Shown: positions 1 to 13,453 of the stretch, piece after piece | Layout: each line of letters starts with the position of its first letter | Position numbering within the stretch: position 1 is the stretch's first letter | Virus record (IMG/VR): IMGVR_UViG_2651869691_000006 | Span: 1-13,453 of that record | Strand: one strand, 5' to 3' | Length of the DNA: 13,453 nucleotides | Origin: a virus | Taxonomy: Duplodnaviria > Heunggongvirae > Uroviricota > Caudoviricetes | The notes under the pieces: generated by a model | Told to the model about the DNA's origin: nothing | The model's database searches: none | Seen by the model: the letters and a program-made list of their open reading frames with translations, nothing else | Translations under genes and position numbers: made by a program

Positions 1-650
<650 letters not shown>

Positions 651-651
<1 letters not shown>

Positions 652-1199
652 TGAGGACGATTGAAGCCATGCAGCGACAACTTCTCGGCCTGATTGGGCG
701 GGCAGTGGTGAAAAGCATCAGTGCCGCCACGAAATGTCAGACCGTGGATGTGTCCCTGATTGCCGGTGAACCCAAAGCCGGGGTTGAACATCTTGAACCC
801 TACGGTTTTACCGCAAGGGCAAACAGCGGTGCGGAAGCGGTGGTGTTGTTTCCGGATGGCGACCGTTCTCATGCGGTGGTTGTTACGGTGTCGGACCGGC
901 GCTACCGCCTGAAAGGGCTGCAGACGGGTGAGGTGGCTGTCTATGACGATCAGGGGCAGTCTGTGACGCTGACCCGGGAGGGGATCGTGGTGGACGGTGC
1001 AGGTAAAACGATCACGTTTCGCAATGCGCCCAGAGCACGTTTTGAAATGGACCTGGAAGTGACCGGACAGGTGAAAGACCTGTGCGACTCCGGCGGCACC
1101 ACCATGTCAGCGATGCGGCTTGCCTATAACGGCCATCGTCACAGAGAGAACGGTCAGGGCAGTAACACCGACAAACCGGATAAAGCGATGGAGGCATGA
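651..1199 (+). CDS. Phage baseplate assembly/spike protein V-like (Mu gp45-like)
   Basis: 182-aa ORF; ATG overlaps the upstream stop; motif ...LQTGEVAVYDDQGQSVTLTREGIVVDG... typical of gpV-type baseplate spike proteins; size and position match Mu gp45. Confidence 0.7.
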
Positions 1200-1624
1200 T
1201 GGAACTGTGGCTGACGGTGAACGGTAAACGCACCTGCGCCAGCGCACCGCTGGATCCGCTGACCCGCGCCGTGGTGATTTCCCTGTTCACCTGGCGGCGG
1301 GCGGAGCCTGATGACAATGCCGACGTCCCGATGGGATGGTGGGGGGATACCTGGCCTGCGGTACAGAATGACCGTTACGGCTCCCGGCTGTGGCTGCTTC
1401 AGCGCGGCAAACTGACCAATCAGCTGGTGCAGACGGTAAGGGGGTATATCCGCGAATGCCTGCAATGGATGATTGATGACGGTGTGGTGTCCCGTATTGA
1501 TCTGGATATCCGCCGCACCGGGATTAATGAACTGGGTAACAGTATCACTCTCTGGCGTCGTGACGGACCGGTAATGATTTCTTTTGATGATCTGTGGAGT
1601 GCGATAACGCATGGCGGACAGTGA
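1196..1624 (+). CDS. Phage baseplate protein, Mu gp46-like (GP46/W-like)
   Basis: 142-aa ORF overlapping the upstream stop by 4 nt (ATGA); size and position between V-like and J-like genes match Mu gp46. Confidence 0.65.
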   Translation: MMELWLTVNGKRTCASAPLDPLTRAVVISLFTWRRAEPDDNADVPMGWWGDTWPAVQNDRYGSRLWLLQRGKLTNQLVQTVRGYIRECLQWMIDDGVVSRIDLDIRRTGINELGNSITLWRRDGPVMISFDDLWSAITHGGQ

Positions 1625-2669
1625 ATTTCAGCGCCCGACGCTGGCAGAAAATATCAGTATGCTCCGTAACGATTTATTCGCCAGGCTGGACGTCAGCGAC
1701 ACGCTCCGGCGCATGGATGAAGACGTGCGGGCAAAGGTGTATGCGGCGGCGCTGCATACGGTTTACGGTTACATCGATTATCTGGCAATGAACATGCTGC
1801 CTGACCTGTGCGATGAGTCCTGGCTGGCGCGACATGCTGCGATGAAACGGTGTCCGCGCAAGGGGGCCACGGCTGCCAGCGGGTATATGCGCTGGGAAGG
1901 TGTCAGCGATGGCCTGAAGGTGACCGCCGGGAGTGTTATTCAGCGCGATGACCTGGTTCAGTACACGGCAACTGCCGATGCAACCAGCGCCGGTGGTGTC
2001 CTGCGCGTGCCGATCGCCTGCTCAAGTGCAGGAGCGGTCGGTAACGCTGACGACGGTACGTCATTAATCCTGGTCACGCCGGTGAATGGTCTGCCGTCTT
2101 CCGGCGTGGCAGACACTCTGACAGGTGGATTTGATACTGAAGAGCTGGAAACGTGGCGCGCCCGCGTCATTGAGCGGTATTACTGGACGCCTCAGGGCGG
2201 GGCTGACGGGGACTATGTAGTCTGGGCTAAAGAAGTGCCCGGCATTACCCGTGCATGGACATACCGCCACTGGATGGGAACGGGGACTGTCGGTGTGATG
2301 ATTGCCAGCAGTGACCTGATTAATCCCATTCCGGAAGAATCAACGGAAACGGCGGCAAGACAACACATTGAGCCACTGGCCCCGGTGGCAGGCTCTGATT
2401 TGTATGTATTCAGGCCGGTGGCGCATAAAGTGGATTTTCATATCCGCGTGACGCCGGACACACCGGAAATACGGGCTGCCATCACCGCCGAGTTGCGTTC
2501 GTTCCTGCTGCGTGATGGTTATCCGCAGGGAGAACTGAAGGTGTCGCGTATCAGTGAGGCGATTTCCGGTGCGAACGGGGAATACAGCCATCAGTTGCTT
2601 GCACCGGCGGACAATATCTCCATTGCAAAAAATGAACTGGCGGTACTGGGGACGATTTCATGGACGTGA
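1611..2669 (+). CDS. Baseplate J-like protein (Mu gp47-like; JayE-like)
   Basis: 352-aa ORF overlapping neighbours on both sides; size and order (V-like, gp46-like, J-like, gp48-like, tail fibre) match the Mu/P2 baseplate wedge. Confidence 0.75.
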
Positions 2670-3244
2670 CAAACGATGATTACATCCATCTGTTGTCGGC
2701 ACTGTTGCCCCCCGGTCCGGCGTGGTCAGCCAGCGATCCGGCGATTGCCGGTGCGGCACCGTCATTAACCCGCGTTCATCAGCGTGCGGATGCCCTGATG
2801 CGGGAGCTGGATCCGCGCACCACCACCGAACTGATAAATCGCTGGGAGCGTCTGTGCGGCCTGCCGGATGAATGTATTCCCGCAGGGACACAGACCCTTC
2901 GCCAGCGTCAGCAACGACTGGATGCGAAGGTTAACCTGGCGGGCGGCATCAATGAGGATTTTTACCTTGCACAGCTTGCTGCCCTGGGCAGACCAGACGC
3001 CACCATCACGCGATACGACAAAAGCACGTTCACCTGCTCATCGGCCTGTACTGACGCGGTGAATGCGCCGGAATGGCGGTATTACTGGCAGGTCAACATG
3101 CCAGCCGCCACCAACACCACCTGGATGACATGTGGCGATCCCTGTGATTCCGCACTGCGTATCTGGGGCGACACCGTTGTCGAGTGTGTGCTTAACAAAC
3201 TCTGCCCGTCGCATACCTACGTAATTTTTAAATATCCGGAGTAA
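2660..3244 (+). CDS. ymfQ: Phage tail protein, Mu gp48-like / P2 gpI-like (YmfQ-type, DUF2313)
   Basis: 194-aa ORF ([22 protein letters not shown]...) directly upstream of the tail-fibre gene; same length and position as YmfQ of K-12 e14. Confidence 0.65.
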
Positions 3245-3247
3245 TCC

Positions 3248-3832
3248 ATGCATCGTATAGACACGAAAACCGCGCAGAAGGATAAGTTCGGCGCGGGTAA
3301 GAACGGTTTTACCCGTGGTAACCCCCAGACCGGCACACCTGCCACCGATCTGGATGATGACTACTTTGACATGTTGCAGGAGGAACTTTGCAGTGTTGTG
3401 GAGGCATCCGGTGCCAGCCTGGAGAAGGGGCGGCATGACCAGCTGCTTACAGCGCTTCGTGCGCTGCTGTTAAGCCGCAAGAATCCGTTTGGCGATATCA
3501 AATCGGATGGCACGGTGAAAACGGCTCTCGAAAACCTTGGTTTGGGAGAAGGTGCTAACTGGGTTATGTTACCTGGAGGAATGATAATTCAGCGTGTTTA
3601 TCTTGGATTTCCTATTGGCACTAATGTAAGACATATAACTTTCCCCCGGTCGTTTACAACAACGAACTATTCCATCTCAATTAACTGGAATGATATCGGT
3701 ACTGTAACAACTGAAACACAATCACCAGCAAATGTGGCGGTTGTTCATCAAACAAAATCATTAACAGGGGCCAGCATCTGGCAGGCAGGTCCCGGGGGAT
3801 TTAATGTGGACATTATAGCGGTGGGGTATTGA
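3248..3832 (+). CDS. stfP: Side tail fibre protein (StfP-like): constant N-terminal part fused to the currently resident variable C-terminal part
   Basis: 194-aa ORF with the widespread prophage tail-fibre N-terminus [47 protein letters not shown]...; the invertase crossover site lies inside it at 3525-3550 (codons ...[11 protein letters not shown]...). Confidence 0.8.
3525..3550. repeat. Left crossover site of a Pin/Hin/Gin-family DNA invertase (26-bp imperfect palindrome)
   Basis: CTCTCGAAAACC-TT-GGTTTGGGAGAA; the left half matches the hixL half-site TTCTTGAAAACC at 10/12 positions; the right half is the reverse complement of TTCTCCCAAACC; located at the constant/variable junction of the tail-fibre gene. 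Confidence 0.7.
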
Positions 3833-3833
3833 T

Positions 3834-4262
3834 ATGTACGTATGGAGCGCTAAAGCAAATGGCTTTTTCCCCATATCGGAGAAAGAAAAATTTGAGGCAT
3901 CAGGTCTGTGGCCTGATGATGGTGTAATAGTCAGTGAGGAAGAACATAAAAAGTTATTTATGGATATTCCACCAGGAAAACAGATTGGAACACTGAATGG
4001 AAAACCAGCACTGATAGATATTCCTCAGCCGACCAAAAAGGAATTAATAGCTATTGCTGAAGTTAAAAAATCCCAATTACGGGAAAAGGCTGACAGTGAA
4101 ATATCCTGGCGTCAGGATGCTGTTGATGCTGATATCGCAACTGATGAAGAAGCTACAACTCTCACCCAATGGAAGAAATACCGTGTGCTGCTGATGCGTG
4201 TTGATACGTCAACAGCACCCGATATTGAATGGCCTACGCCTCCGGCAGTTCAGGCCAGATGA
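3834..4262 (+). CDS. tfaP: Tail fibre assembly protein (TfaP-like)
   Basis: 142-aa ORF immediately after the tail-fibre gene; C-terminus ...DTSTAPDIEWPTPP shares the motif found at the C-terminus of the convergent tfaE-like gene. Confidence 0.75.
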   Translation: MYVWSAKANGFFPISEKEKFEASGLWPDDGVIVSEEEHKKLFMDIPPGKQIGTLNGKPALIDIPQPTKKELIAIAEVKKSQLREKADSEISWRQDAVDADIATDEEATTLTQWKKYRVLLMRVDTSTAPDIEWPTPPAVQAR

Positions 4263-4827
4263 CATCCGGCGCGGTGCTGGTATCTGTTGCCGTCACCGCG
4301 TCAATGTAATCCAGCACGGCGTTAAGTCGGGTTGTTTCTGCCTGAGTCAGTTTCCGTCCGGCCTGTAATTTCAGCTGAATCAGACTAATGGAAGCCATTG
4401 CTGCATCAATCAGTGACTGGCGCTGTGCTTCTGCCGCGTCTACTGCGGCACTGTGTTGTGCCTCAGTGTCTGTCACCCATTTCTCACCATCCCATTTATC
4501 GTATGGCGTTAACGGTGAAAGCGTGACATAACCGTCTTTGATGGCACCGATATAATCCACTGTAACAGCTGCACCATTTTCGATTGAGTAAACAGTCTCA
4601 TTGCGATGGTCTTCCTCATGGCTCCATCCCTTACCTGTAAATACCGTCACTCTTCCCGGAATGTTTTCGCCCGGGTCAATACCAGTTGAACAGGCGGGCA
4701 TACTTACGCCAGTATTAATATATTCATCAGACCAGCCCGTATACTCAGATGTTTCAGCATCATAATAAAAACAACGCATATCGCCCGGCACTGTAGCCAG
4801 CCCATTTTCATCAAAAACAGGTTTCAT
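4234..4827 (-). CDS. tfaE: Tail fibre assembly protein (TfaE-like), alternative copy inside the invertible segment
   Basis: 197-aa minus-strand ORF; C-terminus ...DTSTAPDVIWPELPEA; 3' end overlaps tfaP by 29 nt on the opposite strand; start overlaps the stfE stop (TAATG). Confidence 0.75.
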   Translation of the reverse strand: MKPVFDENGLATVPGDMRCFYYDAETSEYTGWSDEYINTGVSMPACSTGIDPGENIPGRVTVFTGKGWSHEEDHRNETVYSIENGAAVTVDYIGAIKDGYVTLSPLTPYDKWDGEKWVTDTEAQHSAAVDAAEAQRQSLIDAAMASISLIQLKLQAGRKLTQAETTRLNAVLDYIDAVTATDTSTAPDVIWPELPEA

Positions 4828-5309
4828 TATTTAGCCCTCACCAGAAAGTTAAATGCAATATTTCGCGGTCTGACAGCAACAAAATTCACACCATCACCCA
4901 CAGAGTTACTGGTGAAATTAAATCGTGAAAATCCTGGCTGATTTCCGGCGATGCCATCATGAAAGTTAATTGCGTGTCCCGCACCTTCGCCTATATTCCC
5001 GGCAAACTGAGAAAAGTTTGTAGCTGCCTGCCAGCTTAATAATTCGCGACCACCATCTGCACCTCGCCCGTCATCCCAGACACGAATGAAATCACCGCGT
5101 GCGTCAGGTAATGCCAACGCCGGAAACACTTTCGCCAGCACAGGGTAATCAGTGGCAGAAAATTTCGCCCCGTTGAACTTCAAAAACACCATACTGGACC
5201 AGCTGTCGATTACAGTATTTGGCATTGCAGCGGACGCCCAGAAGAACGGAACGCCAATAGCTGGAGCACCTTCTCCCAAACTGCGATGGCTCACTGCTGA
5301 TATGTGCAA
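4827..5309 (-). CDS. stfE: Alternative tail-fibre variable C-terminal domain (StfE-like), promoterless; expressible only after inversion fuses it to the stfP constant part
   Basis: Minus-strand frame open from 5321 to the stop at 4827-4829, with no ATG near its 5' end (TTG at 5309); begins ...HISAVSHRSLGEGAPAIG..., sharing the LGEGA junction codons with stfP. Confidence 0.65.
   Translation of the reverse strand: MHISAVSHRSLGEGAPAIGVPFFWASAAMPNTVIDSWSSMVFLKFNGAKFSATDYPVLAKVFPALALPDARGDFIRVWDDGRGADGGRELLSWQAATNFSQFAGNIGEGAGHAINFHDGIAGNQPGFSRFNFTSNSVGDGVNFVAVRPRNIAFNFLVRAK
5265..5293. repeat. Right boundary repeat of the invertible segment: inner half-site only
   Basis: AGCACCTTCTCCCAAAC at 5265-5281 is the exact reverse complement of 3540-3556; beyond it (TGCGATGGCTCA) neither the core dinucleotide nor an outer half-site is recognisable. 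Confidence 0.6.
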
Positions 5310-5503
5310 TCGACGGGGAGTTCAGGATCAAGCGATATCGGACTCATCCTCAACACCACCTGATTAATTTGGAGAGCGGGAGAAGGGAGATGCTACCAGT
5401 AGATGATGACGGTTACGGTTCTGCTCCCGCGATATTCGGGGTGATTACTTACATCATTAATGATGCGAGGAACGCGGAGTTTGATGATTGTCCGGTGATG
5501 TAA

Positions 5504-6172
5504 TCATATTGGCGTTATTAGTTCGGCGCCCTGATTTTTCACATTCCCGACGGCACGCGTTACGGCGTGCCATATAAATTTATCAGCCGGTACAACACCG
5601 TCGGCTGCAATTTCCGCTGCTTCTTTCCCTCCAACATCCTGCCTCATCCATTCACGCGCGGCTTCCGGTAGCAGTACCAGTGGTCGTCTGTCGTGAATAT
5701 CAACCAGTCCTTTGTCAGCTGCAGCTGTAACTATCAGGAAACCTTCTGCTTCATCTCCACGTTCGAATGGTGTGCTGCCGATCGCCGCCATAAAAATCGG
5801 CTGACCGTCTGCCCGGTGAATAAAGTAGGGTTGTTTTTGGTCGCCTTCCTTTTTCCACTCATACCATCCATCAGCAAAGCAAATTGCGCGGCCATGCTGC
5901 CAGAGTGGTTTAAACATTCTGCTGGTGGCAGCAGTTTCAGACCGTGCATTAATGAGCGGCGGTTTATCCCACCAACCGGGGGCGTATCCCCAGATAACTG
6001 GATCAAGATGCAACTGCTCATCACGTTCGCTCAGAAGCAGAACTTTTGTTCCTGGCGCTACGTTGAATCTTCCGATGGGTTCTGGATCGTATGGAATATC
6101 GCGTTCTGATTCATCAGCGAGAAGGGCAAGATAATCTTCACGGGTCATTGACTGTGAAAAGCGTCCACACAT
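5504..6172 (-). CDS. SOS-response-associated peptidase (SRAP, YedK/HMCES family; abasic-site processing protein)
   Basis: 222-aa ORF starting MCGRFSQS (conserved Cys2 nucleophile of the SRAP/DUF159 family); GGAGG Shine-Dalgarno 5 nt upstream of the ATG. Confidence 0.8.
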   Translation of the reverse strand: MCGRFSQSMTREDYLALLADESERDIPYDPEPIGRFNVAPGTKVLLLSERDEQLHLDPVIWGYAPGWWDKPPLINARSETAATSRMFKPLWQHGRAICFADGWYEWKKEGDQKQPYFIHRADGQPIFMAAIGSTPFERGDEAEGFLIVTAAADKGLVDIHDRRPLVLLPEAAREWMRQDVGGKEAAEIAADGVVPADKFIWHAVTRAVGNVKNQGAELITPI

Positions 6173-6406
6173 AGAAACCTCCAGCCGTATGTCAGACTGA
6201 AAGTATAGGGCAGTTAGAAAAAGTGGTGCACACCGTTAAAGATTTAAAAGGAGCATGTAAGGTAAATCGGAATGATGGTTTTGTGAATTGATGAATTCCG
6301 AAAGTGAAAAAGATACTTAATCATTGTGTGCTAGCGATACGGGGGCAACATTTGACGGGGTTTTTCCCCTGTAATTCCCCATTGCTTCCCCGTTCAGAAA
6401 ACAGGC

Positions 6407-6431
6407 AAAAAAACCAGCCGTAACAGGCTGG
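6407..6431 (-). terminator. Rho-independent terminator (minus strand) within repeat copy 1
   Basis: On the minus strand: CCAGCC-tgttac-GGCTGG hairpin followed by TTTTTTT. Confidence 0.7.
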
Positions 6432-6446
6432 TTCTTCGAGGATTTT

Positions 6447-6491
6447 TGGTCGGCACGAGAGGATTTGAACCTCCGCCCCCCGACACCCCAT
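6447..6491 (-). pseudogene. tRNA-Pro 3' fragment (anticodon loop to CCA end), not a complete tRNA
   Basis: Reverse complement reads AUGGGGUGUCGGGGGGCGGAGGUUCAAAUCCUCUCGUGCCGACCA: T-arm GGAGG-UUCAAAU-CCUCU, acceptor 3' strand CGUGCCG, discriminator A, CCA. This matches from memory the 3' half of an E. coli proline tRNA (anticodon loop AUGGGGU). No 5' half is present upstream. Confidence 0.65.
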
Positions 6492-6569
6492 AGTGTCGTG
6501 CTAATATTCTGATGGCCTATATGCGTCTACAGTAAGTTGATAGCATCATTCGTCGGTCGCTTCGTAGTC

Positions 6570-7385
6570 TCACATACGGATAAAATTTTTTCTATTGATT
6601 TTGTCTCTATCAGAGCCATAAATGATGGTTGCAAAAAAACGACCTAATTCAAGATGGTGGAAGTGATTATCTTTTGCTTGAACTGTCATTGAGTCTAATA
6701 TGTTATAGATGCATTCTATGATATGAATAACTAATAAAGTGCGATAACCAGCAAGCATTTCACTTCTTTTAAGTAAATAATTTAAATCCCCTGCAGAGTT
6801 TATATGGTTTCTGTCTTCATCATAATATCCAAGCACATAGCATGGCAGTGTTTCACCATAGCTTCGGTATTGCTCGCATTTTTTATCAATTATATTTTTT
6901 TGTCTTTTTGTTAATATTTTATCGTAAATGCTCTTATCGATTTCATTATACCATTGCTTCATGGGATCATTGTCGTTGTCATTAGTAATGAAATCAATAT
7001 TACTATATCTTGATGAATTTGCAAAATTAGTTAACAACTCCATCACTCTGTAGTGAATTTCATTTAAGCCAGAGGGAGAATCAACTCTCTCAATGACTAG
7101 GTTGAATAACTTGCTTAAGTTATGACCGTAATCTCTTAATTTTTTGCGTGATGTATATTTTCCATTTTTATTATAATCATCAAGCATAAGGCAAAGTTTC
7201 ATAAGCCTTTCTAATCCTAAACTGATGCCGGATAATGCTTGAAAATACAATCCTCTACTTGCAAAATTTGCTTTCCTTAGGGAAGTGAGCCCTATGCCTA
7301 ATAATTGTCTTGAAAAGTCAACCTCATCAACAAATCTTCTGTATTTTTCATCCATAAAAACCTCAGTCAGCCAATTAATATTCAA
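6570..7385 (-). CDS. Hypothetical protein, 271 aa, AT-rich horizontally acquired cargo gene; function unknown (candidate defence/abortive-infection-like)
   Basis: Long minus-strand ORF in a region that appears strongly AT-rich by inspection, in contrast to flanking DNA; Lys/Asn/Ile/Tyr-rich protein; contains KLRDYGHNLSKL (R-x3-H); followed by the terminator in repeat copy 1. Confidence 0.7.
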   Translation of the reverse strand: MNINWLTEVFMDEKYRRFVDEVDFSRQLLGIGLTSLRKANFASRGLYFQALSGISLGLERLMKLCLMLDDYNKNGKYTSRKKLRDYGHNLSKLFNLVIERVDSPSGLNEIHYRVMELLTNFANSSRYSNIDFITNDNDNDPMKQWYNEIDKSIYDKILTKRQKNIIDKKCEQYRSYGETLPCYVLGYYDEDRNHINSAGDLNYLLKRSEMLAGYRTLLVIHIIECIYNILDSMTVQAKDNHFHHLELGRFFATIIYGSDRDKINRKNFIRM

Positions 7386-7577
7386 GAATGATTTCTATAA
7401 AGAACTAATCTAGTTAAATCATCTGATGTAATTAGTATTACAATACCATCAGACGACATTGAAGCAGTATTGTGCCTTATCTACCCTATGTACGTCCATT
7501 GATAAAAATCTGCGCTTTTCGCAGTGGGGTCAATCGTAAGCTAATTTCCCCATTGCTTCCCCGTTCAGAAAACAGGC

Positions 7578-7603
7578 AAAAAAAACCAGCCGTAACAGGC
7601 TGG
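7578..7603 (-). terminator. Rho-independent terminator (minus strand) within repeat copy 2
   Basis: Same CCAGCC/GGCTGG hairpin followed by an 8-T run on the minus strand, positioned downstream of the 322-aa gene. Confidence 0.7.
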
Positions 7604-7618
7604 TTCTTCGAGGATTTT

Positions 7619-7662
7619 TGGTCAGCACGAGAGGATTTGAACCTCCGCCCCCGACACCCCAT
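7619..7662 (-). pseudogene. tRNA-Pro 3' fragment (copy 2), acceptor stem mutated (CGUGCUG)
   Basis: Reverse complement reads AUGGGGUGUCGGGGGCGGAGGUUCAAAUCCUCUCGUGCUGACCA. Confidence 0.6.
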
Positions 7663-7858
7663 AGCGGTGATCTACCTTCTCATCAAGGGTAACCATGTGC
7701 CAGAAGCAGCCCTTGCGCACATTGGATGGGTATCAAATAATGAAGTAGGTCAACTTTATTAAATAAAATTGTGTTGGTTCAGATGATCGAATGGGAATGA
7801 ATAGTTTATTACTTTTGGTGACCGCAAGCGCGATCACCTTCGATTTGGTGGCAATTAC

Positions 7859-8827
7859 CTAGAATGATGCACAATCTTTAAGCTCTTTTTCTAGTTGTTC
7901 AACCAAGTCACAGCATTTTTTGATAACATCTTTAACTGACTCTGAATCTAACTTATGAAAATTACCATTTTTTGTTTTACCTGCTCGATGAACTAAGTCA
8001 TGCCTAATTAACACGCTTTTATAAACTTCTGTGAAAACAGGGAATTTAATACCAAAGGTATCTCGATACATGCCACTTACTTTTGGCAGATTATGATAAA
8101 GAACACTCTTCATAGACTCTATCGCTTGAGACTCTATTTGTTCATGCCTTATAAATAATTCAGAAAGTAAGAATTTTTCTGTATTGTAATCTTTGAAGGT
8201 TTCAACAAAATTTCTCAAATTAGTTTGGCTACCATGAATTAGGGAAATAAATCTGTCACATAAATATGTTTCCAAGGAAGTTATTGTATTGGCATATAGC
8301 ATATACGACATTTGTATTTGTAAAGTGCTATCAATTTTTAACTGAGCATCATTTAGTTTTATGGCGTTCTGCATACTATTTTGGAATGTCATATAGACAT
8401 CTCGTTCAGATAGCGTTCGATCATCAGAGTACTGCATATCAATAACATCTAGAATGCGCTGTTCAATTAATGAAGGTCTATTCAACTGTAATATATCTAT
8501 AGTCGCATGTCCTCGCTCAGTTAAACCTTCTAAATATCCATTTTTATTTTGTTTTATATGTTCTGAAAAACTTTCATTTAAAGGATTTAGAAGTAATGGT
8601 TTGCCATTTTCATCGAGAGGAAACTGATCTTTTTTAATCATGCTACATGCCTTACAAGCGATGAGCAGGTTGTCTGTAGCATCTTGGAAGTCAGTATACT
8701 TTGATTTTGGGAAAAAACGATCAACATCCGCCATCAATGGTTCATAAAGTTTAGTGCCACAGTAAGCACATTGATGCTTAAACTTCTCCCATAGTTCAAG
8801 TTTAAACGTTTTATAATTCTTATTCAT
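7859..8827 (-). CDS. Hypothetical protein, 322 aa, AT-rich cargo gene: N-terminal HNH-like zinc-ribbon domain with non-canonical catalytic positions plus C-terminal domain with an R-x4-H motif (candidate nuclease/defence protein)
   Basis: N-terminus has C20-x2-C23 ... D36-R37-FFPKS ... N53-LLIA-C58-x2-C61, the spacing of an HNH motif but with Arg where the DH histidine normally sits; C-terminus contains IRHDLVHRAG (R275-x4-H280); region appears AT-rich by inspection. Confidence 0.7.
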   Translation of the reverse strand: MNKNYKTFKLELWEKFKHQCAYCGTKLYEPLMADVDRFFPKSKYTDFQDATDNLLIACKACSMIKKDQFPLDENGKPLLLNPLNESFSEHIKQNKNGYLEGLTERGHATIDILQLNRPSLIEQRILDVIDMQYSDDRTLSERDVYMTFQNSMQNAIKLNDAQLKIDSTLQIQMSYMLYANTITSLETYLCDRFISLIHGSQTNLRNFVETFKDYNTEKFLLSELFIRHEQIESQAIESMKSVLYHNLPKVSGMYRDTFGIKFPVFTEVYKSVLIRHDLVHRAGKTKNGNFHKLDSESVKDVIKKCCDLVEQLEKELKDCASF

Positions 8828-9271
8828 TGAATAGTTCCTTTATATTCTTGACTTGATTGTTTGTTTGCCAATTTAAGCCAAAGACACACGACTTTAATTG
8901 GGCTTGAATCATAGTTATATGTAATCTATTAAGCAAACACTTTTCATTAATAGCATGAGATAACGCTCAATTCTTTATTTTCCGGGAGTGTGTAACTTCA
9001 TATCCACCTCTCACTCACAGCGTACGTTATTGGCGAAAAATTTAGTTAAGCCATTGATAGTTTGTGAAAACACGCATGATTTAAAATCCCTTTGCCGTGA
9101 AGGGGCTGATAGGTACAGGCACTTGTTTTTGCCCTCTAAAACGGTTATCAAAACCAAAAAACATACATTGATAATCAATAGGTTAGGGGAAAGATAAAAG
9201 CCAGTTGATTTACAATAAAATTATAGGATTATTTTTATTTATCATGCGGTTGTATATGAACCATCTAACTA

Positions 9272-9436
9272 CTGCTGCGCCATATGGGCTGGACTGAAGC
9301 CGCAGACCTGATTGTTAAAGGTATGGAAGGCGCAATCAACGCCAAGACCGTAACCTATGACTTCGAGCGTCTGATGGAAGGCGCTAATCTGCTGAAATGT
9401 TCAGAGTTTGGTGACGCGATCATCAAGAACATGTAA
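9272..9436 (+). pseudogene. icdC: icd 3'-terminal fragment (icdC): displaced original 3' end of isocitrate dehydrogenase, marking prophage attR
   Basis: Translates in frame to [54 protein letters not shown], the C-terminus of Icd; no upstream icd sequence (in-frame TAA at 9266-9268). Confidence 0.85.
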
Positions 9437-9460
9437 TCTCTACATGTGTTAAATATTGAA

Positions 9461-9488
9461 ACGGGCGTATAACACGCCCGTTGTTTTT
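9461..9488 (+). terminator. Rho-independent terminator of icd
   Basis: ACGGGCGT-ataac-ACGCCCGT hairpin followed by TGTTTTT. Confidence 0.75.
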
Positions 9489-9697
9489 ATAAATATGTTA
9501 ACCGTTATAAAATAACGTATCAAAAGTCAAGTGAACACATTTCAAATATCAATTTGATCGTATTGGTCTGGTGATTATTTATGGGGAGCAATAAAAAGAC
9601 AGTATTAATCATCCATAGGGATGGTCTCTGCACTTTTATTTCCATTATGCTAATGCCTTACTGAATTATGAAGCATTTCTTAAGCTCCCAACTTTAG

Positions 9698-10102
9698 CTA
9701 GATTAATGGTTTATTATTTTCTACATCTTCAATATATAAAAGCGTATTATCAATGGCGTAGTAACTGCGTTTGTTATGATTAACATCAGTAACCCACCGG
9801 AAAACGCCTGCGCCTGCCAGTGTTGAACAGTATTCCCGAAATGTAGATTTTCCGCGAATATGAAGCAATGCGGCCTCTTTTATTTTAGCTGGGTTCTTGG
9901 TCGTACTAACTTTTAACAGGTTCCTGGTTCCTCTTAATAACAAAACCGTGTCATCGTGAGTAATAATTCTGATGTTATCCGTAGCCAGATAATAAATGTA
10001 ATGTGCAATACGGTGATGTTTTAATTCTGAATAAAACCAGGAGAAGTTTTGCTCTTTTCTCACTTGCTCAAACATCTTTTGAAAAACAACGACCTGATCC
10101 AT
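9698..10102 (-). CDS. ycgX: DUF1398-family protein YcgX
   Basis: 134-aa ORF with the GVFRWVT motif; same size and position (between icdC and bluR) as K-12 ycgX. Confidence 0.8.
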   Translation of the reverse strand: MDQVVVFQKMFEQVRKEQNFSWFYSELKHHRIAHYIYYLATDNIRIITHDDTVLLLRGTRNLLKVSTTKNPAKIKEAALLHIRGKSTFREYCSTLAGAGVFRWVTDVNHNKRSYYAIDNTLLYIEDVENNKPLI

Positions 10103-10322
10103 CAGGATAATAACCTCTTGTTAGGTGTGAGACTGCGTAGTGTGCACGATCGGTTTTACCACTTCAATCTGGTCTGTCCTTTGGCTGTGATATGTACAAA
10201 GTGTGAAAGGGGGATTACCTGAATTCTCCCGGTGAGCATTTTGCAACGGACCAGCTCCGCTACAAACGCTGTTGTGGGTTCAGATTATAACATTCTGTCT
10301 AAGGGGCGGGATAAAGGTGAAT

Positions 10323-11054
10323 TTAGGGGGCATGAAAGATGACTTTATAACCTTGCTCACCCCAGTGTTGTAAAAGTTCGTTTTGCCTTCTCGTTGGTGC
10401 CATGCCTGTCCAGACAATCAATGTTTGCGTTGGGAACAGTTCCGGGCGCGGCGATTCAATGGGATCAGCAAGAACAGAAATGTGCCATCCTGACAATGAT
10501 AAACGCCATGCTTCCAGCCACAATCGTGCTCTCTCTTCAACATTCCACGCCATCAGAATGGCCTCTTTACCGGGCTTACGGCGCATTTCGAAAAGTGAGG
10601 CCGCTGCGTATTCAATTAATGTGCCGTCAAACATACTGCTCATAATGCGGGAGGTGTTGTGATCAAGCACGAGACGCTGGCGAACAGGAAGGTAAACATG
10701 ATTAATCAATTGATCTACTGGGTACTCTCGACCCAGTGAAATAATTCGCGCGCGTAGTTTGGCTGGATTAGCCATACGAAGAATTGACATCATCTCTTCT
10801 TGCAGGCGGCTCCAGTCATCTTGCGTATCCTGGCTGGTAGTTTCCAGTAATGCTTTCACTTTGCCTACAGGAACGCCATTACTTATCCAACGCTTGATCT
10901 CTTCGATGCGTTGTATGTCTTCTTCATCAAAGAGTCGGTGTCCGCCTTCACTGCGCTGTGGTTTTAACAAACCGTAGCGGCGTTGCCAGGCCCGGAGAGT
11001 GACAGGATTAATCCCGCAACGTTCAGCAACATCACCAATGCTGTAATAAGCCAC
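10323..11054 (-). CDS. bluR: MerR-family transcriptional repressor BluR (YcgE)
   Basis: 243-aa ORF; N-terminal MerR helix-turn-helix ([42 protein letters not shown]); synteny with bluF and ycgZ. Confidence 0.85.
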
Positions 11055-11103
11055 AATTCCTCCTTGCGGTCATAAATCTCCGTCGCCTCTACACGACCCA
11101 ATA

Positions 11104-11141
11104 ATACTTTGTACAATATACGCTGAAATTGTACAAAGTAT
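11104..11141. promoter_or_regulatory. Perfect 14-bp inverted repeat with 10-bp spacer between bluF and bluR (candidate operator or RNA hairpin)
   Basis: ATACTTTGTACAAT-atacgctgaa-ATTGTACAAAGTAT; each arm contains the self-complementary octamer TTGTACAA; lies 50-87 bp upstream of the bluR start. Confidence 0.35.
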
Positions 11142-11258
11142 AAATAAGATTTCAGCTAAATTGGATGAAACATTATTTTTAATGTGGATTAAATTAAAAC
11201 ATAACGCATTCATTTTCGCGATGATTTCCAGAAATCATGCGAAATAATGTGCTGAAAA

Positions 11259-12470
11259 TTATTTTTTCTCCGGCCACGCAACTGAAGGGATACCATTCAA
11301 TTTAGCTTTGGAAAACAGATCTCCCTGAAACATCTCAATTCCTGCAGATTCAAGCCACATCCACTCTTCTGGTGTTGCCACGCCCATAGCAGAGACTTGA
11401 ATTTCAAGTGATGTACAGCATTTCATGATCGCCTGAATAATTGCCTGCCGTGGTCCGCTTTTATGAACATTGGTAATCAATTCCTGACTGATTTTAATTC
11501 TGTCAGGCTGGAAGCGTGACAGGAGTAACAAACCAGCAAAACCTGCGCCAAAATGATCAATTGCTACACTGATACCGGCAGCCTTTAGCGATTTAACCGC
11601 TTCGGCAAACTCATCAAACCGAGATATGACTTCACTTTCAGTAAATTCAACGATGATTTGTTCAGGCACCAGAGCATTGGCCTTTATTTCATCAAGTAAA
11701 AAAGAGACTGCGTCAGGCTCGTTAACCAGGGTCATAGGTAATAGATTGATTGAAATCATTTTATCACCGAGCTTAAGTGCGTGTGCCATCGCAAATGCAA
11801 GCGCCTTACTTTTGAGATCCGCTGTGTAGATTTCCTCGTCTTTACGCTGCCCAACCGCTATAGCTGACGGGCTGTCTTCATTTTTTTGCACAATGGCTTC
11901 AAAAGCGATTATCCGCCGCGATAAAGGGTCGACAATAGGATGAAAGGCAAAGTGGTCGTTTATATTTGATGAAAGGGTACAAGAATCAAGTTCTTTATCA
12001 GATCCGTCAGCGATAAAAAGCCAGGAGTCTTCAGCAGGAATCTCGAAATAGGTTGATTGTTCAGTTGCAAGGACAAAAGTACGAAAAAATTGTAGCGCTC
12101 TGTCATCATAAGTTAGCTGAAATTTTGATGTGCCTTTGTCGAATACGGCCTGTAAAACGTCATCTCGCTCGTGCAGGCGTAAATCAAATAATTCCATTCC
12201 TGCTTTGCCAAAACGGCGAGCAGGCGCGTAATCGCACAACAGTTCAACAATATTATAGTGCCGTGGATCCTGGCATATGGCCCGATATATCATTTGAACC
12301 TGTTCTTCCGGACCTTCCAGAAGCTGGAAAAAATGAGAACCATTAAACAGTAAGATCCCTGTTACGTCAGACCGCATGTTCCTGCGATTTGCTATCGAAA
12401 CCATTTCTTCGATTTTTTTGACAGGTTCGTCGTCACGTATATGGCTACGATAAATAAGGGTGGTAAGCAT
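11259..12470 (-). CDS. bluF: Blue-light sensor BluF (YcgF), BLUF-EAL protein
   Basis: Start chosen at the internal ATG giving MLTTLIYRSHIRDDEP... (403 aa) rather than the TTG at 12548 used by the ORF track; N-terminal BLUF domain, C-terminal EAL-like domain; divergent from ycgZ. Confidence 0.85.
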   Translation of the reverse strand: MLTTLIYRSHIRDDEPVKKIEEMVSIANRRNMRSDVTGILLFNGSHFFQLLEGPEEQVQMIYRAICQDPRHYNIVELLCDYAPARRFGKAGMELFDLRLHERDDVLQAVFDKGTSKFQLTYDDRALQFFRTFVLATEQSTYFEIPAEDSWLFIADGSDKELDSCTLSSNINDHFAFHPIVDPLSRRIIAFEAIVQKNEDSPSAIAVGQRKDEEIYTADLKSKALAFAMAHALKLGDKMISINLLPMTLVNEPDAVSFLLDEIKANALVPEQIIVEFTESEVISRFDEFAEAVKSLKAAGISVAIDHFGAGFAGLLLLSRFQPDRIKISQELITNVHKSGPRQAIIQAIMKCCTSLEIQVSAMGVATPEEWMWLESAGIEMFQGDLFSKAKLNGIPSVAWPEKK

Positions 12471-12548
12471 TAACAATCCAGGGTAATAGGCGAGGCGAGA
12501 GTAAGACGGTAACAGACATATCTTCTTGTGTCTTTCTTTTAATACCAA

Positions 12549-12783
12549 AACATAACCGTTTCTTTACATTGATAAAAAGTGGAAAAGGTTGAAGACGGTT
12601 TGGCGAAAAAACTTGTATAGGTTGTCATTTAAATGATGCAATATGTTTTATCATAATGCATTGTTTTATATGAATTAGCACTAATTGAGAAAAATTAATT
12701 TATCATTCTGTACACATATTTCGTACAAGTTTGCTATTGTTACCTCACTTAACATTGATTAACATTTTTAACAGAGGCGTAGC
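12549..12783. promoter_or_regulatory. Divergent bluF / ycgZ-ymgA promoter region (expected BluR-controlled ycgZ promoter)
   Basis: 235-bp AT-rich intergenic region between divergently oriented bluF and ycgZ; regulatory role inferred from established knowledge of the BluR/BluF-ycgZ-ymgA-ariR circuit, with no specific operator identified here. Confidence 0.5.
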
Positions 12784-13020
12784 ATGCATCAAAATTCAGT
12801 GACTTCAGATTCTGCAGGAGCAATCACTCGTTACTTTGCAAAAGCTAAGTTGCCTACTCAGCAGGAAACTCTCGGGGAAATTGTGACTGAGATTTTGAAA
12901 GATGGACGTAATCTGAGTCGAAAGTCGCTTTGTGCCAAACTTCTTTGCCGACTGGAACAAGCGACAGGGGAAGAGGAACAGAAACATTATAATGCACTAA
13001 TTGGGTTGCTTTTTGAATAA
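12784..13020 (+). CDS. ycgZ: Small regulatory protein YcgZ (biofilm/acid-resistance connector)
   Basis: 78-aa ORF MHQNSVTSDSAGAITRYFAKAKL...; size and synteny. Confidence 0.85.
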   Translation: MHQNSVTSDSAGAITRYFAKAKLPTQQETLGEIVTEILKDGRNLSRKSLCAKLLCRLEQATGEEEQKHYNALIGLLFE

Positions 13021-13062
13021 TGCAACAGCCTGATTATTTAACAGGTTAGCTATGAAGTCGTT

Positions 13063-13335
13063 ATGAAGACATCTGATAATGAAAGTATAAAATATGAAAT
13101 TACTGGCCAGGCGGTGCTCCAGATACTGCGCATGAAGATAAATTTTTCGTTGCAGACTCTTATTAAGCAATTACTCGTAATGAAATCGGCTGAGGAAAAT
13201 ACTTTCCGACGAGATTTAATTGACAGCATAATTCGTGATTTTAGCAACAGTGATACAGGAGGGCCAAACCGAAGAACAGCGATAGCTGACAATAAAAGTA
13301 TGTTCACTGGTAAGAAAATAAACAGAATACATTAA
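13063..13335 (+). CDS. ymgA: Small regulatory protein YmgA
   Basis: 90-aa ORF MKTSDNESIKYEITGQAVLQILRMKINF...; follows ycgZ by 42 bp. Confidence 0.85.
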   Translation: MKTSDNESIKYEITGQAVLQILRMKINFSLQTLIKQLLVMKSAEENTFRRDLIDSIIRDFSNSDTGGPNRRTAIADNKSMFTGKKINRIH

Positions 13336-13406
13336 AATTTCATAAGTAAGATGAGAGGGTAATGACTCCAACTTATTGATAGTGTTTTATGTTCAGATAA
13401 TGCCCG

Positions 13407-13453
13407 ATGACCTTGTCATGCAGCTCCACCGATTTTGAGAACGACAGTGACTT
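13407..13453 (+). CDS. Possible 5' end of the next operon gene (position expected for ariR/ymgB), truncated by window end
   Basis: Only frame open to the window end after the stop at 13398-13400; ATG at 13407 (MTLSCSSTDFENDSD...); weak Shine-Dalgarno; not verified. Confidence 0.2.
   Translation, partial: MTLSCSSTDFENDSD

Follow-up and report, generated by a model that had tools for sequence, protein, structure and literature searches.

PtuB is an HNH protein of the Septu system PtuAB and of the type I-A retrons Retron-Eco7 (Ec78) and Eco4 (Ec83), where it needs the ABC-ATPase PtuA. Both in Septu and in Retron-Eco7 its target is the variable loop of tRNA-Tyr. The H57A substitution in Retron-Eco7 PtuB abolishes defence together with tRNA-Tyr cleavage, zinc-finger cysteine mutants lose both, and PtuA is bound by a C-terminal domain at amino acids (aa) 153-216 (PMC12673091). 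Here we describe a gene whose product has an HNH domain of this type in its N-terminal half and, in the place of the PtuA-binding domain, a HEPN domain. The gene, called the HNH-HEPN gene below, lies in a stretch of 13,453 nucleotides (nt) (IMG/VR record IMGVR_UViG_2651869691_000006, positions 1 to 13,453; hereafter the window), which contains the right-hand end of a prophage of e14 type inserted in icd. No PtuA partner stands beside the gene, either in the window or in the loci of its relatives.

The C-terminal half of the protein shares the R-x4-H motif with the RiboL-PSP-HEPN family (PF18735; Anantharaman et al. 2013, PMC3710099). This family was described as distant kin of AbiD/AbiF; the architectures given for it are endoRNase L-PSP fusions and ParB operons, a PtuB-type HNH fused at the N-terminus does not appear among them, and HEPN-DNase fusions are mentioned in general terms (PMC3710099). 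A homologous HEPN domain is present in DS-33A (WP_014639476.1, working name "GNAT"), one of the two proteins of DS-33. The DS-33 system protects Escherichia coli by 3.3-5 logs against T7, T3, Bas67 and Bas26, with protection falling to about 0 logs upon deletion of the HEPN and being kept upon deletion of the GNAT partner (DefensePredictor). The two HEPN domains align over aa 140-309 against 115-292 (28% identity, E 6e-13) and share the helix-1 stretch LY(A/T)N(V/T)IT(A/S)LET as well as R-x-(H/D)-LVHR-GK-K-G. However, the N-terminal domain of DS-33A is unrelated and not an HNH, and the second gene, DS-33B (annotated as GNAT), is absent from the window: in tblastn, the best match of DS-33B to the window had E 1.3, while DS-33A matched the HEPN half only (E 2e-11). 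The HHpred table of DefensePredictor also ties DS-33A to PD-T4-2_B, a "RiboL-PSP-HEPN" protein; the PD-T4-2 models of PADLOC gave no match to the C half of the window protein.

Two further systems invite comparison. DARNA (PD-T7-3; bioRxiv 10.64898/2026.02.22.705581) is a single HEPN protein, activated by single-stranded DNA, that cuts tRNA in abortive infection and is licensed by a non-catalytic nucleic-acid-binding domain. It differs in having an N-terminal HEPN, an alpha-helical Pds5-like sensor and a dodecameric assembly, and no sequence similarity was detected, so the likeness is one of analogy only. McrA (EcoKMcrA) also has an HNH domain and is encoded at the right end of e14 in K-12 by the last cargo gene, immediately before the icdC fragment. 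In the window, baseplate and tail-fibre genes lie upstream of the cargo region, and the icd' fragment at 9284-9436 is followed by ycgX, bluR, bluF and ycgZ; the slot before this fragment is held by the HNH-HEPN gene, just as the original prediction had placed it relative to mcrA. Nevertheless, the HNH of McrA is C-terminal, behind a modified-cytosine-binding domain, and McrA is without HEPN. The HNH-HEPN gene lies on the opposite strand and is no mcrA allele.

Our literature search retrieved no paper on an HNH-HEPN fusion or on the accession of this protein, WP_032162444.1. This accession was likewise not found in the portions of the DefensePredictor supplementary tables that were searched; a 301-aa "HNH endonuclease", HNH1 (WP_252151320.1), was tested in DefensePredictor and not validated. 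The architecture that we did not find described is that of a solitary mobile gene in which a PtuB-type HNH, lacking PtuA, is joined to a RiboL-PSP-HEPN.

Domain composition of the HNH-HEPN protein

The features of the gene and its product in the window are as follows.

7859..8827, minus strand: HNH-HEPN gene, complete open reading frame (ORF), 322 aa from ATG; RefSeq WP_032162444.1, labelled "HNH endonuclease"
8438..8827, minus strand: PtuB-like (TIGR02646-type) HNH / beta-beta-alpha-metal zinc-finger domain, aa 1-130
8717..8719, minus strand: codon 37, CGT (Arg), where HNH domains have the general-base His (H57 in Retron-Eco7 PtuB, by alignment to PtuB IEHF)
8642..8644, minus strand: codon 62, AGC (Ser), at the putative last HNH metal-ligand position, Asn in most relatives
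8645..8770, minus strand: span with the zinc-ligand cysteines C20, C23, C58 and C61 and the invariant N53
8408..8437, minus strand: inter-domain linker, aa 131-140, of low model confidence
7877..8407, minus strand: HEPN domain of RiboL-PSP-HEPN (PF18735) type, aa 141-317
7985..8005, minus strand: HEPN catalytic motif R275-H276-D277-L-V-H280-R281 (R-x4-H), invariant in 62/62 aligned relatives

The original prediction had read this protein as an HNH-like zinc ribbon, with Arg in place of the His and Ser at the last ligand, followed by a HEPN with R-x4-H, and this two-domain reading was borne out. All the residues that it named were found at their places in the translation of 7859-8827: C20, C23, D36, R37 (CGT), N53, C58, C61 and S62 (AGC) in the N half, with the string D36-R37-FFPKS, and R275, H276, D277, H280 and R281 in the C half, where IRHDLVHRAG contains R275-x4-H280.

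The N half was matched by the PADLOC model PDLC00337 (PtuB-type HNH) over aa 6-156 with E 1.1e-23, and PADLOC PtuB models, which carry no curated cut-off, reached 82 bits on it. The TIGR02646 score of the window protein was 17.7 bits, below the cut-off of 52.15. A profile built from 32 relatives matched the solved PtuB chains (Septu, retrons Eco7/Ec78 and Ec83) at E 2e-7 to 1e-5, and in this alignment D36-R37-F38 of the window protein sits on E56-H57-F58 of PtuB. Since R37 is aligned with H57, which was essential in the H57A test, it occupies the catalytic position. The first three cysteines, C20, C23 and C58, align with C43, C46 and C78 of PtuB; the fourth zinc Cys of PtuB is C90, whereas that of the window protein sits in a CxxC pair. 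The predicted structure of the N half has the beta-beta-alpha-metal fold with the helical extension specific to the PtuB subfamily. Thus the window allele, with R37 and S62, is without both the catalytic His and the last Asn/His metal ligand; the correspondence of S62 to N863 of Cas9, the last metal-ligand Asn, is suggested by the N53+9 spacing rather than by alignment. Between the halves, pLDDT (the local confidence score) falls below 50 at aa 133-135, and the pTM (the global score) of 0.56 leaves the relative orientation of the domains uncertain.

The C half aligns to positions 23-190 of the 191 positions of PF18735. Relatives that match the family profile at E 1e-43 to 1e-58 score 30-46 bits on this model, above its cut-off, and precomputed PF18735 matches exist for the full-length relatives P0012, P0016, P0021, P0023, P0037, P0040 and P0041. 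The predicted fold of this half is the four-helix up-down bundle of HEPN, and R275-x4-H280 aligns to R258-x4-H263 of DS-33A. The motif is invariant also in those aligned relatives that have different N-terminal domains. In a library of 50%-identity representatives, 504 proteins matched the family profile at E <1e-30. About 20 of the best matches were full-length HNH+HEPN proteins, and among the 150 best-scoring matches listed nearly all others were covered over the HEPN module alone. The ten proteins scanned bear other N-termini on this module, among them a PNP_UDP phosphorylase, a P-loop NTPase, HEPN/Toprim-NTD and HEPN/RES-NTD. Given a constant HEPN with varying N-termini among the relatives, the HEPN is the constant module and the N-terminus the variable one; judged from these sequences, the HEPN module is a putative reusable effector.

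Relatives, losses of the HNH histidine and the mobile unit

A first search yielded about 46 full-length relatives, which came from Serratia, Proteus, Enterobacter, Pantoea, Vibrio and metagenomes. Residues were then tallied over 62 aligned sequences, of which 56 are full-length HNH+HEPN and six are not. C20, C23, C58, C61 and N53 are unchanged in all full-length relatives, and the HEPN residues E186, H245, R275, H276, D277, H280 and R281 are invariant in 62/62, so that the CxxC and R-x4-H motifs singled out by the original prediction are conserved throughout. Position 37 is His in 46 of the 56 full-length sequences. These have the canonical (D/E)-H and, in most cases, C-x2-C-N, and the Serratia, Proteus and Enterobacter copies of 83% identity are among them. 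The exceptions at this position are R (the E. coli cluster and a 97%-identical copy in Citrobacter freundii), Q (two), N (three), A (one) and S (one), plus one ambiguous case in which the His is displaced by one residue. The last metal-ligand position varies more widely: of the 62 aligned sequences, 40 have N, 10 have S, 5 have D and 5 have another residue, while 2 show a gap.

For almost all sequences that lack the His, the nearest neighbours carry it (P0013, with Q, is 84% identical to three His-bearing sequences), which indicates at least seven independent losses of the HNH His. Where the E. coli allele has CGT and AGC, its three closest relatives, at 83% identity, read CAC (His) and AAC (Asn). 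By this comparison Arg37 is an allele-specific substitution of the E. coli/Citrobacter cluster (H37R, with N62S) and not a family trait. The suggestion of a "variant or non-catalytic fold" therefore holds in part: R37 and S62 are real, but they mark an allele-specific loss within a canonical PtuB-type family rather than a variant HNH family.

The E. coli allele carries 25 specific substitutions, 11 of them in the N half (42% of the length), and most of those in the N half other than the two at the catalytic site are conservative. Against its three nearest relatives, all His-bearing, the E. coli allele gave pairwise dN/dS values (the ratio of nonsynonymous to synonymous divergence, NG86) of 0.19-0.27 over the N half and 0.20-0.25 over the C half, in the same range as between His-bearing pairs, and the N domain diverges no faster in non-His members. 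Purifying selection acts on both halves of the protein. The R37/S62 allele is intact on 463 contigs, on which the exact protein WP_032162444.1 is recorded, and also in Citrobacter freundii. Given these dN/dS values, the invariant cysteines and N53, and the intact copies, the HNH fold seems to be retained under selection even without the catalytic His. The locus is rare among complete E. coli genomes (8/5426), where it is annotated only as "HNH endonuclease".

The gene has a GC content of 32% against 45-59% in the flanking chromosome and prophage, and blastn delimits it as part of a mobile unit.

7695..9021, minus strand: mobile unit of 1.33 kb, comprising the gene, a 194-nt leader and a 164-nt trailer (blastn)
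7817..7838, minus strand: 9-bp hairpin about 20 nt past the stop codon, with no U-run after it, conserved in 5/5 aligned loci

The whole of 7695-9021 matches a Serratia P4-like satellite, an Enterobacter prophage end, a Proteus island and IMG/VR contigs at 83-86% identity, and the homology ends exactly at both borders. The leader (8828-9021) and the trailer (7695-7858) keep about 80-86% identity between unrelated contexts, no less than synonymous sites do (dS 0.32-0.44). A structured RNA or RNA antitoxin in the 194-nt leader was considered and rejected: its folding z-score was +0.79, it has no repeats, and the window gave no Rfam match. RNAalifold covariation did not support a leader structure either (one compensatory pair among 45, from five sequences and thus of low power). 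The hairpin at 7817-7838 was not called by the terminator scan, and a sigma-70 promoter scan gave fewer matches than in shuffled sequence.

Six independent contexts of the gene were compared, all of them mobile elements or islands: a P4-like satellite in Serratia, where it lies beside a type I restriction-modification (R-M) system, Mrr and an AAA ATPase; a Proteus island with a retron-PtuAB-like set (reverse transcriptase (RT), SMC/AAA ATPase and an unannotated 215-aa ORF) and a NACHT protein; a lambdoid prophage of Pantoea, between the repressor region and xis-int; a Vibrio superintegron, beside Shedu and ParE cassettes; an island carrying SIR2-HerA; and an Enterobacter prophage end, downstream of umuDC. 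The gene is solitary in all six. Known defence genes occur within 8 kb in four of the six (type I R-M with Mrr, retron-like RT/ATPase with NACHT, Shedu, and SIR2-HerA). Five full-length copies were found on IMG/VR viral contigs. No full-length homologue was found in 50,697 sequenced phage genomes or in plasmids, where the HEPN module only occurs.

No partner gene is common to the six contexts, and the adjacent 261-aa gene of the window was ruled out as a partner by its absence from all the relatives' loci. With regard to a PtuA-like ATPase, no ATPase ORF is present in 5300-9500 of the window, and none adjoins the gene in the six relatives' loci. As an aside, the Proteus set lies in Proteus sp. 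CD3 (CP019686.1, positions 1-3345 of locus L005), with RT, SMC/AAA ATPase, the 215-aa ORF (no Pfam match) and NACHT about 5 kb from the HNH-HEPN copy. By size and position the 215-aa ORF is a candidate PtuB; if so, a single island would hold both a PtuA-dependent PtuB and a PtuB-HEPN fusion.

Possible role of the protein and competing explanations

Given the contexts of the relatives, the mcrA slot and the homologous DS-33A HEPN that is required for defence, the HNH-HEPN gene is a candidate defence effector. We consider that it probably encodes a single-protein abortive-infection or defence effector, in which the HEPN would be the obligatory RNase and the PtuB-like domain would bind or sense nucleic acid. 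Such an effector would stand alone and consist of two modules; its gene is part of the cargo of prophages, satellites and integron cassettes. By analogy with other HEPN proteins, the HEPN may dimerise to form a metal-independent RNase site from R275 and H280, and, once activated, may cut cellular or phage RNA (tRNA, rRNA or mRNA) so that translation stops. The N-terminal domain would be a PtuB-type zinc-finger HNH module minus the PtuA-binding tail. In most relatives, where the HNH has the full catalytic set, it may serve as a second nuclease. Because the general-base His is replaced by Arg and the last metal ligand by Ser, the HNH of the E. coli allele is most likely non-cutting, and it would most likely have only a nucleic-acid-binding, sensing, recruiting or autoinhibitory role. 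RNase activity, dimerisation, a trigger and phage protection are thus properties that we infer for this protein. Repeated loss of the His, with the zinc site, N53 and the HEPN residues fixed, is the pattern expected if the HEPN and not the HNH were indispensable.

A number of observations weigh against an HEPN-driven defence effector. The C half of the window protein scored only 16 bits (E 0.011) on PF18735, with a gathering cut-off of 28.4 bits, and the N half 32.7 bits on the NCBIfam PtuB model NF041761, with a cut-off of 150. Both scores fall short of the curated thresholds. A full-length model is lacking in PADLOC v2, whose sole match to the C half was marginal. The case for defence by this protein or its full-length relatives is drawn from sequence and context. 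Should the HNH His be essential as it is in PtuB, the E. coli allele could be a dead or weakened variant; pairwise dN/dS, which averages both lineages, does not date H37R relative to the purifying selection. Finally, an unregulated HEPN toxin would be lethal, yet no antitoxin, partner or trigger was identified, and no RNA structure was detected in the conserved leader.

Among the other explanations, the closest to the favoured one is a more specific form of it. It is conceivable, if doubtful, that a HEPN RNase acquired a PtuA-independent PtuB-type HNH as an arm for sensing nucleic acid or recruiting substrate, that the His-bearing members are dual nucleases hitting RNA (e.g. tRNA) or phage DNA at two sites, and that the HNH has repeatedly become dead and purely sensing or positioning in lineages such as that of the E. 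coli allele. If true, the family would offer a natural series of a nuclease turning into a sensor inside one defence protein. The main rival explanation, although unlikely, is that the protein is primarily an HNH nuclease of DNA (or tRNA), solitary and restriction-like, with the HEPN serving dimerisation or regulation and the E. coli R37/S62 allele being harmless loss-of-function cargo. Consistent with this, PtuB H57A abolishes function, His is kept by most relatives, the K-12 counterpart in the slot is the HNH restriction enzyme McrA, and a PADLOC type IV restriction (REase) model matches aa 19-123 (E 2.3e-11). The two E. coli-specific non-conservative changes, moreover, fall exactly on the general base and the metal ligand, as relief from a toxic nuclease would look. 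It sits poorly, however, with an ORF kept intact on so many contigs and in a second genus, with purifying selection equal in the N and C halves, and with at least seven losses of the His set against an invariant zinc site, N53 and HEPN catalytic residues; and it is the homologous HEPN module alone that is needed for DS-33 defence.

An addiction or stabilisation toxin, or an inter-element weapon, working for the mobile element and restrained by a cis-encoded RNA or an unlinked host factor, is quite unlikely. The roughly 190 nt of conserved leader that always accompany the gene would suit it, as would the toxin-antitoxin cassettes around the Vibrio integron copy and the reports, cited by the DARNA preprint, of RNA antitoxins in the related AbiF HEPN family. 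On the other hand, none of the six contexts has a conserved neighbouring ORF, there is no MNT-type partner, and the leader, as described above, lacks repeats, stable folding and covariation, with no Rfam match in the window; addiction and defence are, besides, not mutually exclusive. It is highly improbable that we are dealing with a selfish HNH homing endonuclease of a phage, or with a phage DNA-packaging/HNH accessory protein, whose helical tail would be unrelated. PHROG and BFVD searches do match aa 3-125 to many phage "HNH endonuclease" families, and the BFVD fold search returned generic phage HNH matches only, none at E <=0.001. But the best matches are PtuB and not homing enzymes, the tail is a HEPN with invariant catalytic residues, full-length homologues are missing from the 50,697 phage genomes, and the gene lies at prophage ends or in cargo slots, neither inside conserved phage genes nor by the terminase.

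If the HNH-HEPN protein is indeed a defence effector, it would be a compact one-gene abortive-infection system of 1.33 kb, in which a PtuB works without an ATPase partner when fused to HEPN. The His-keeping and His-less lineages also form a natural experiment on whether the HNH acts as a second effector or as a sensor licensing the HEPN, sensing being the least understood step in most single-gene defence systems. The right end of e14 would also appear as a swappable defence slot, with mcrA in K-12 and the HNH-HEPN gene plus a second HEPN-fold gene in the window. If it is not defensive, it would be one more uncharacterised prophage cargo gene built of known domains. The original proposal of a defence candidate "of an undescribed type" accordingly fits the relatives' contexts as far as defence is concerned, but both domains, the PtuB HNH and the RiboL-PSP-HEPN, belong to described families, and "undescribed" applies to their combination only.

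The neighbouring cargo region of the window

At 3248-5309 of the window, tail-fibre and tail-fibre-assembly genes lie in opposite orientations, in the layout of an e14/Mu-type invertible segment. The near-identical strain AH01 has a recombinase-family (Pin-like) gene after its tail-fibre genes; at 5310-5503 of the window no recombinase, dinI or S24 peptidase ORF is listed, and it differs from AH01 there. Further along, the 261-aa gene is flanked by a pair of repeats.

6375-6493 and 7546-7664: two 119-nt direct repeats flanking the 261-aa gene, one mismatch and a 1-nt indel apart

Each repeat contains, on the minus strand, the 3' half of a tRNA-Pro (from the anticodon loop to CCA) and a terminator hairpin. 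Apart from these 3' halves, the window has no tRNA or tmRNA gene, and ARAGORN found no whole tRNA in it. The repeats are attachment-site copies of an element integrating at proL, and their layout suggests that tandem islands, now reduced to remnants, were taken up into the cargo region of the prophage.

The segment 5504-6493 holds a SRAP/YedK-like gene (222 aa, PF02586, E 7e-51) and the first tRNA-Pro fragment. In many other E. coli strains, the end of an island integrated at the tRNA-Pro beside yejM matches it with about 93% identity. Since this segment matches a separate tRNA-Pro island, the e14-like cargo region is a mosaic of different integrative elements. In one strain, the yejM-side island also carries umuDC, dinI and a HipA-kinase/DUF3037 pair, a system of the DS-6 type of DefensePredictor.

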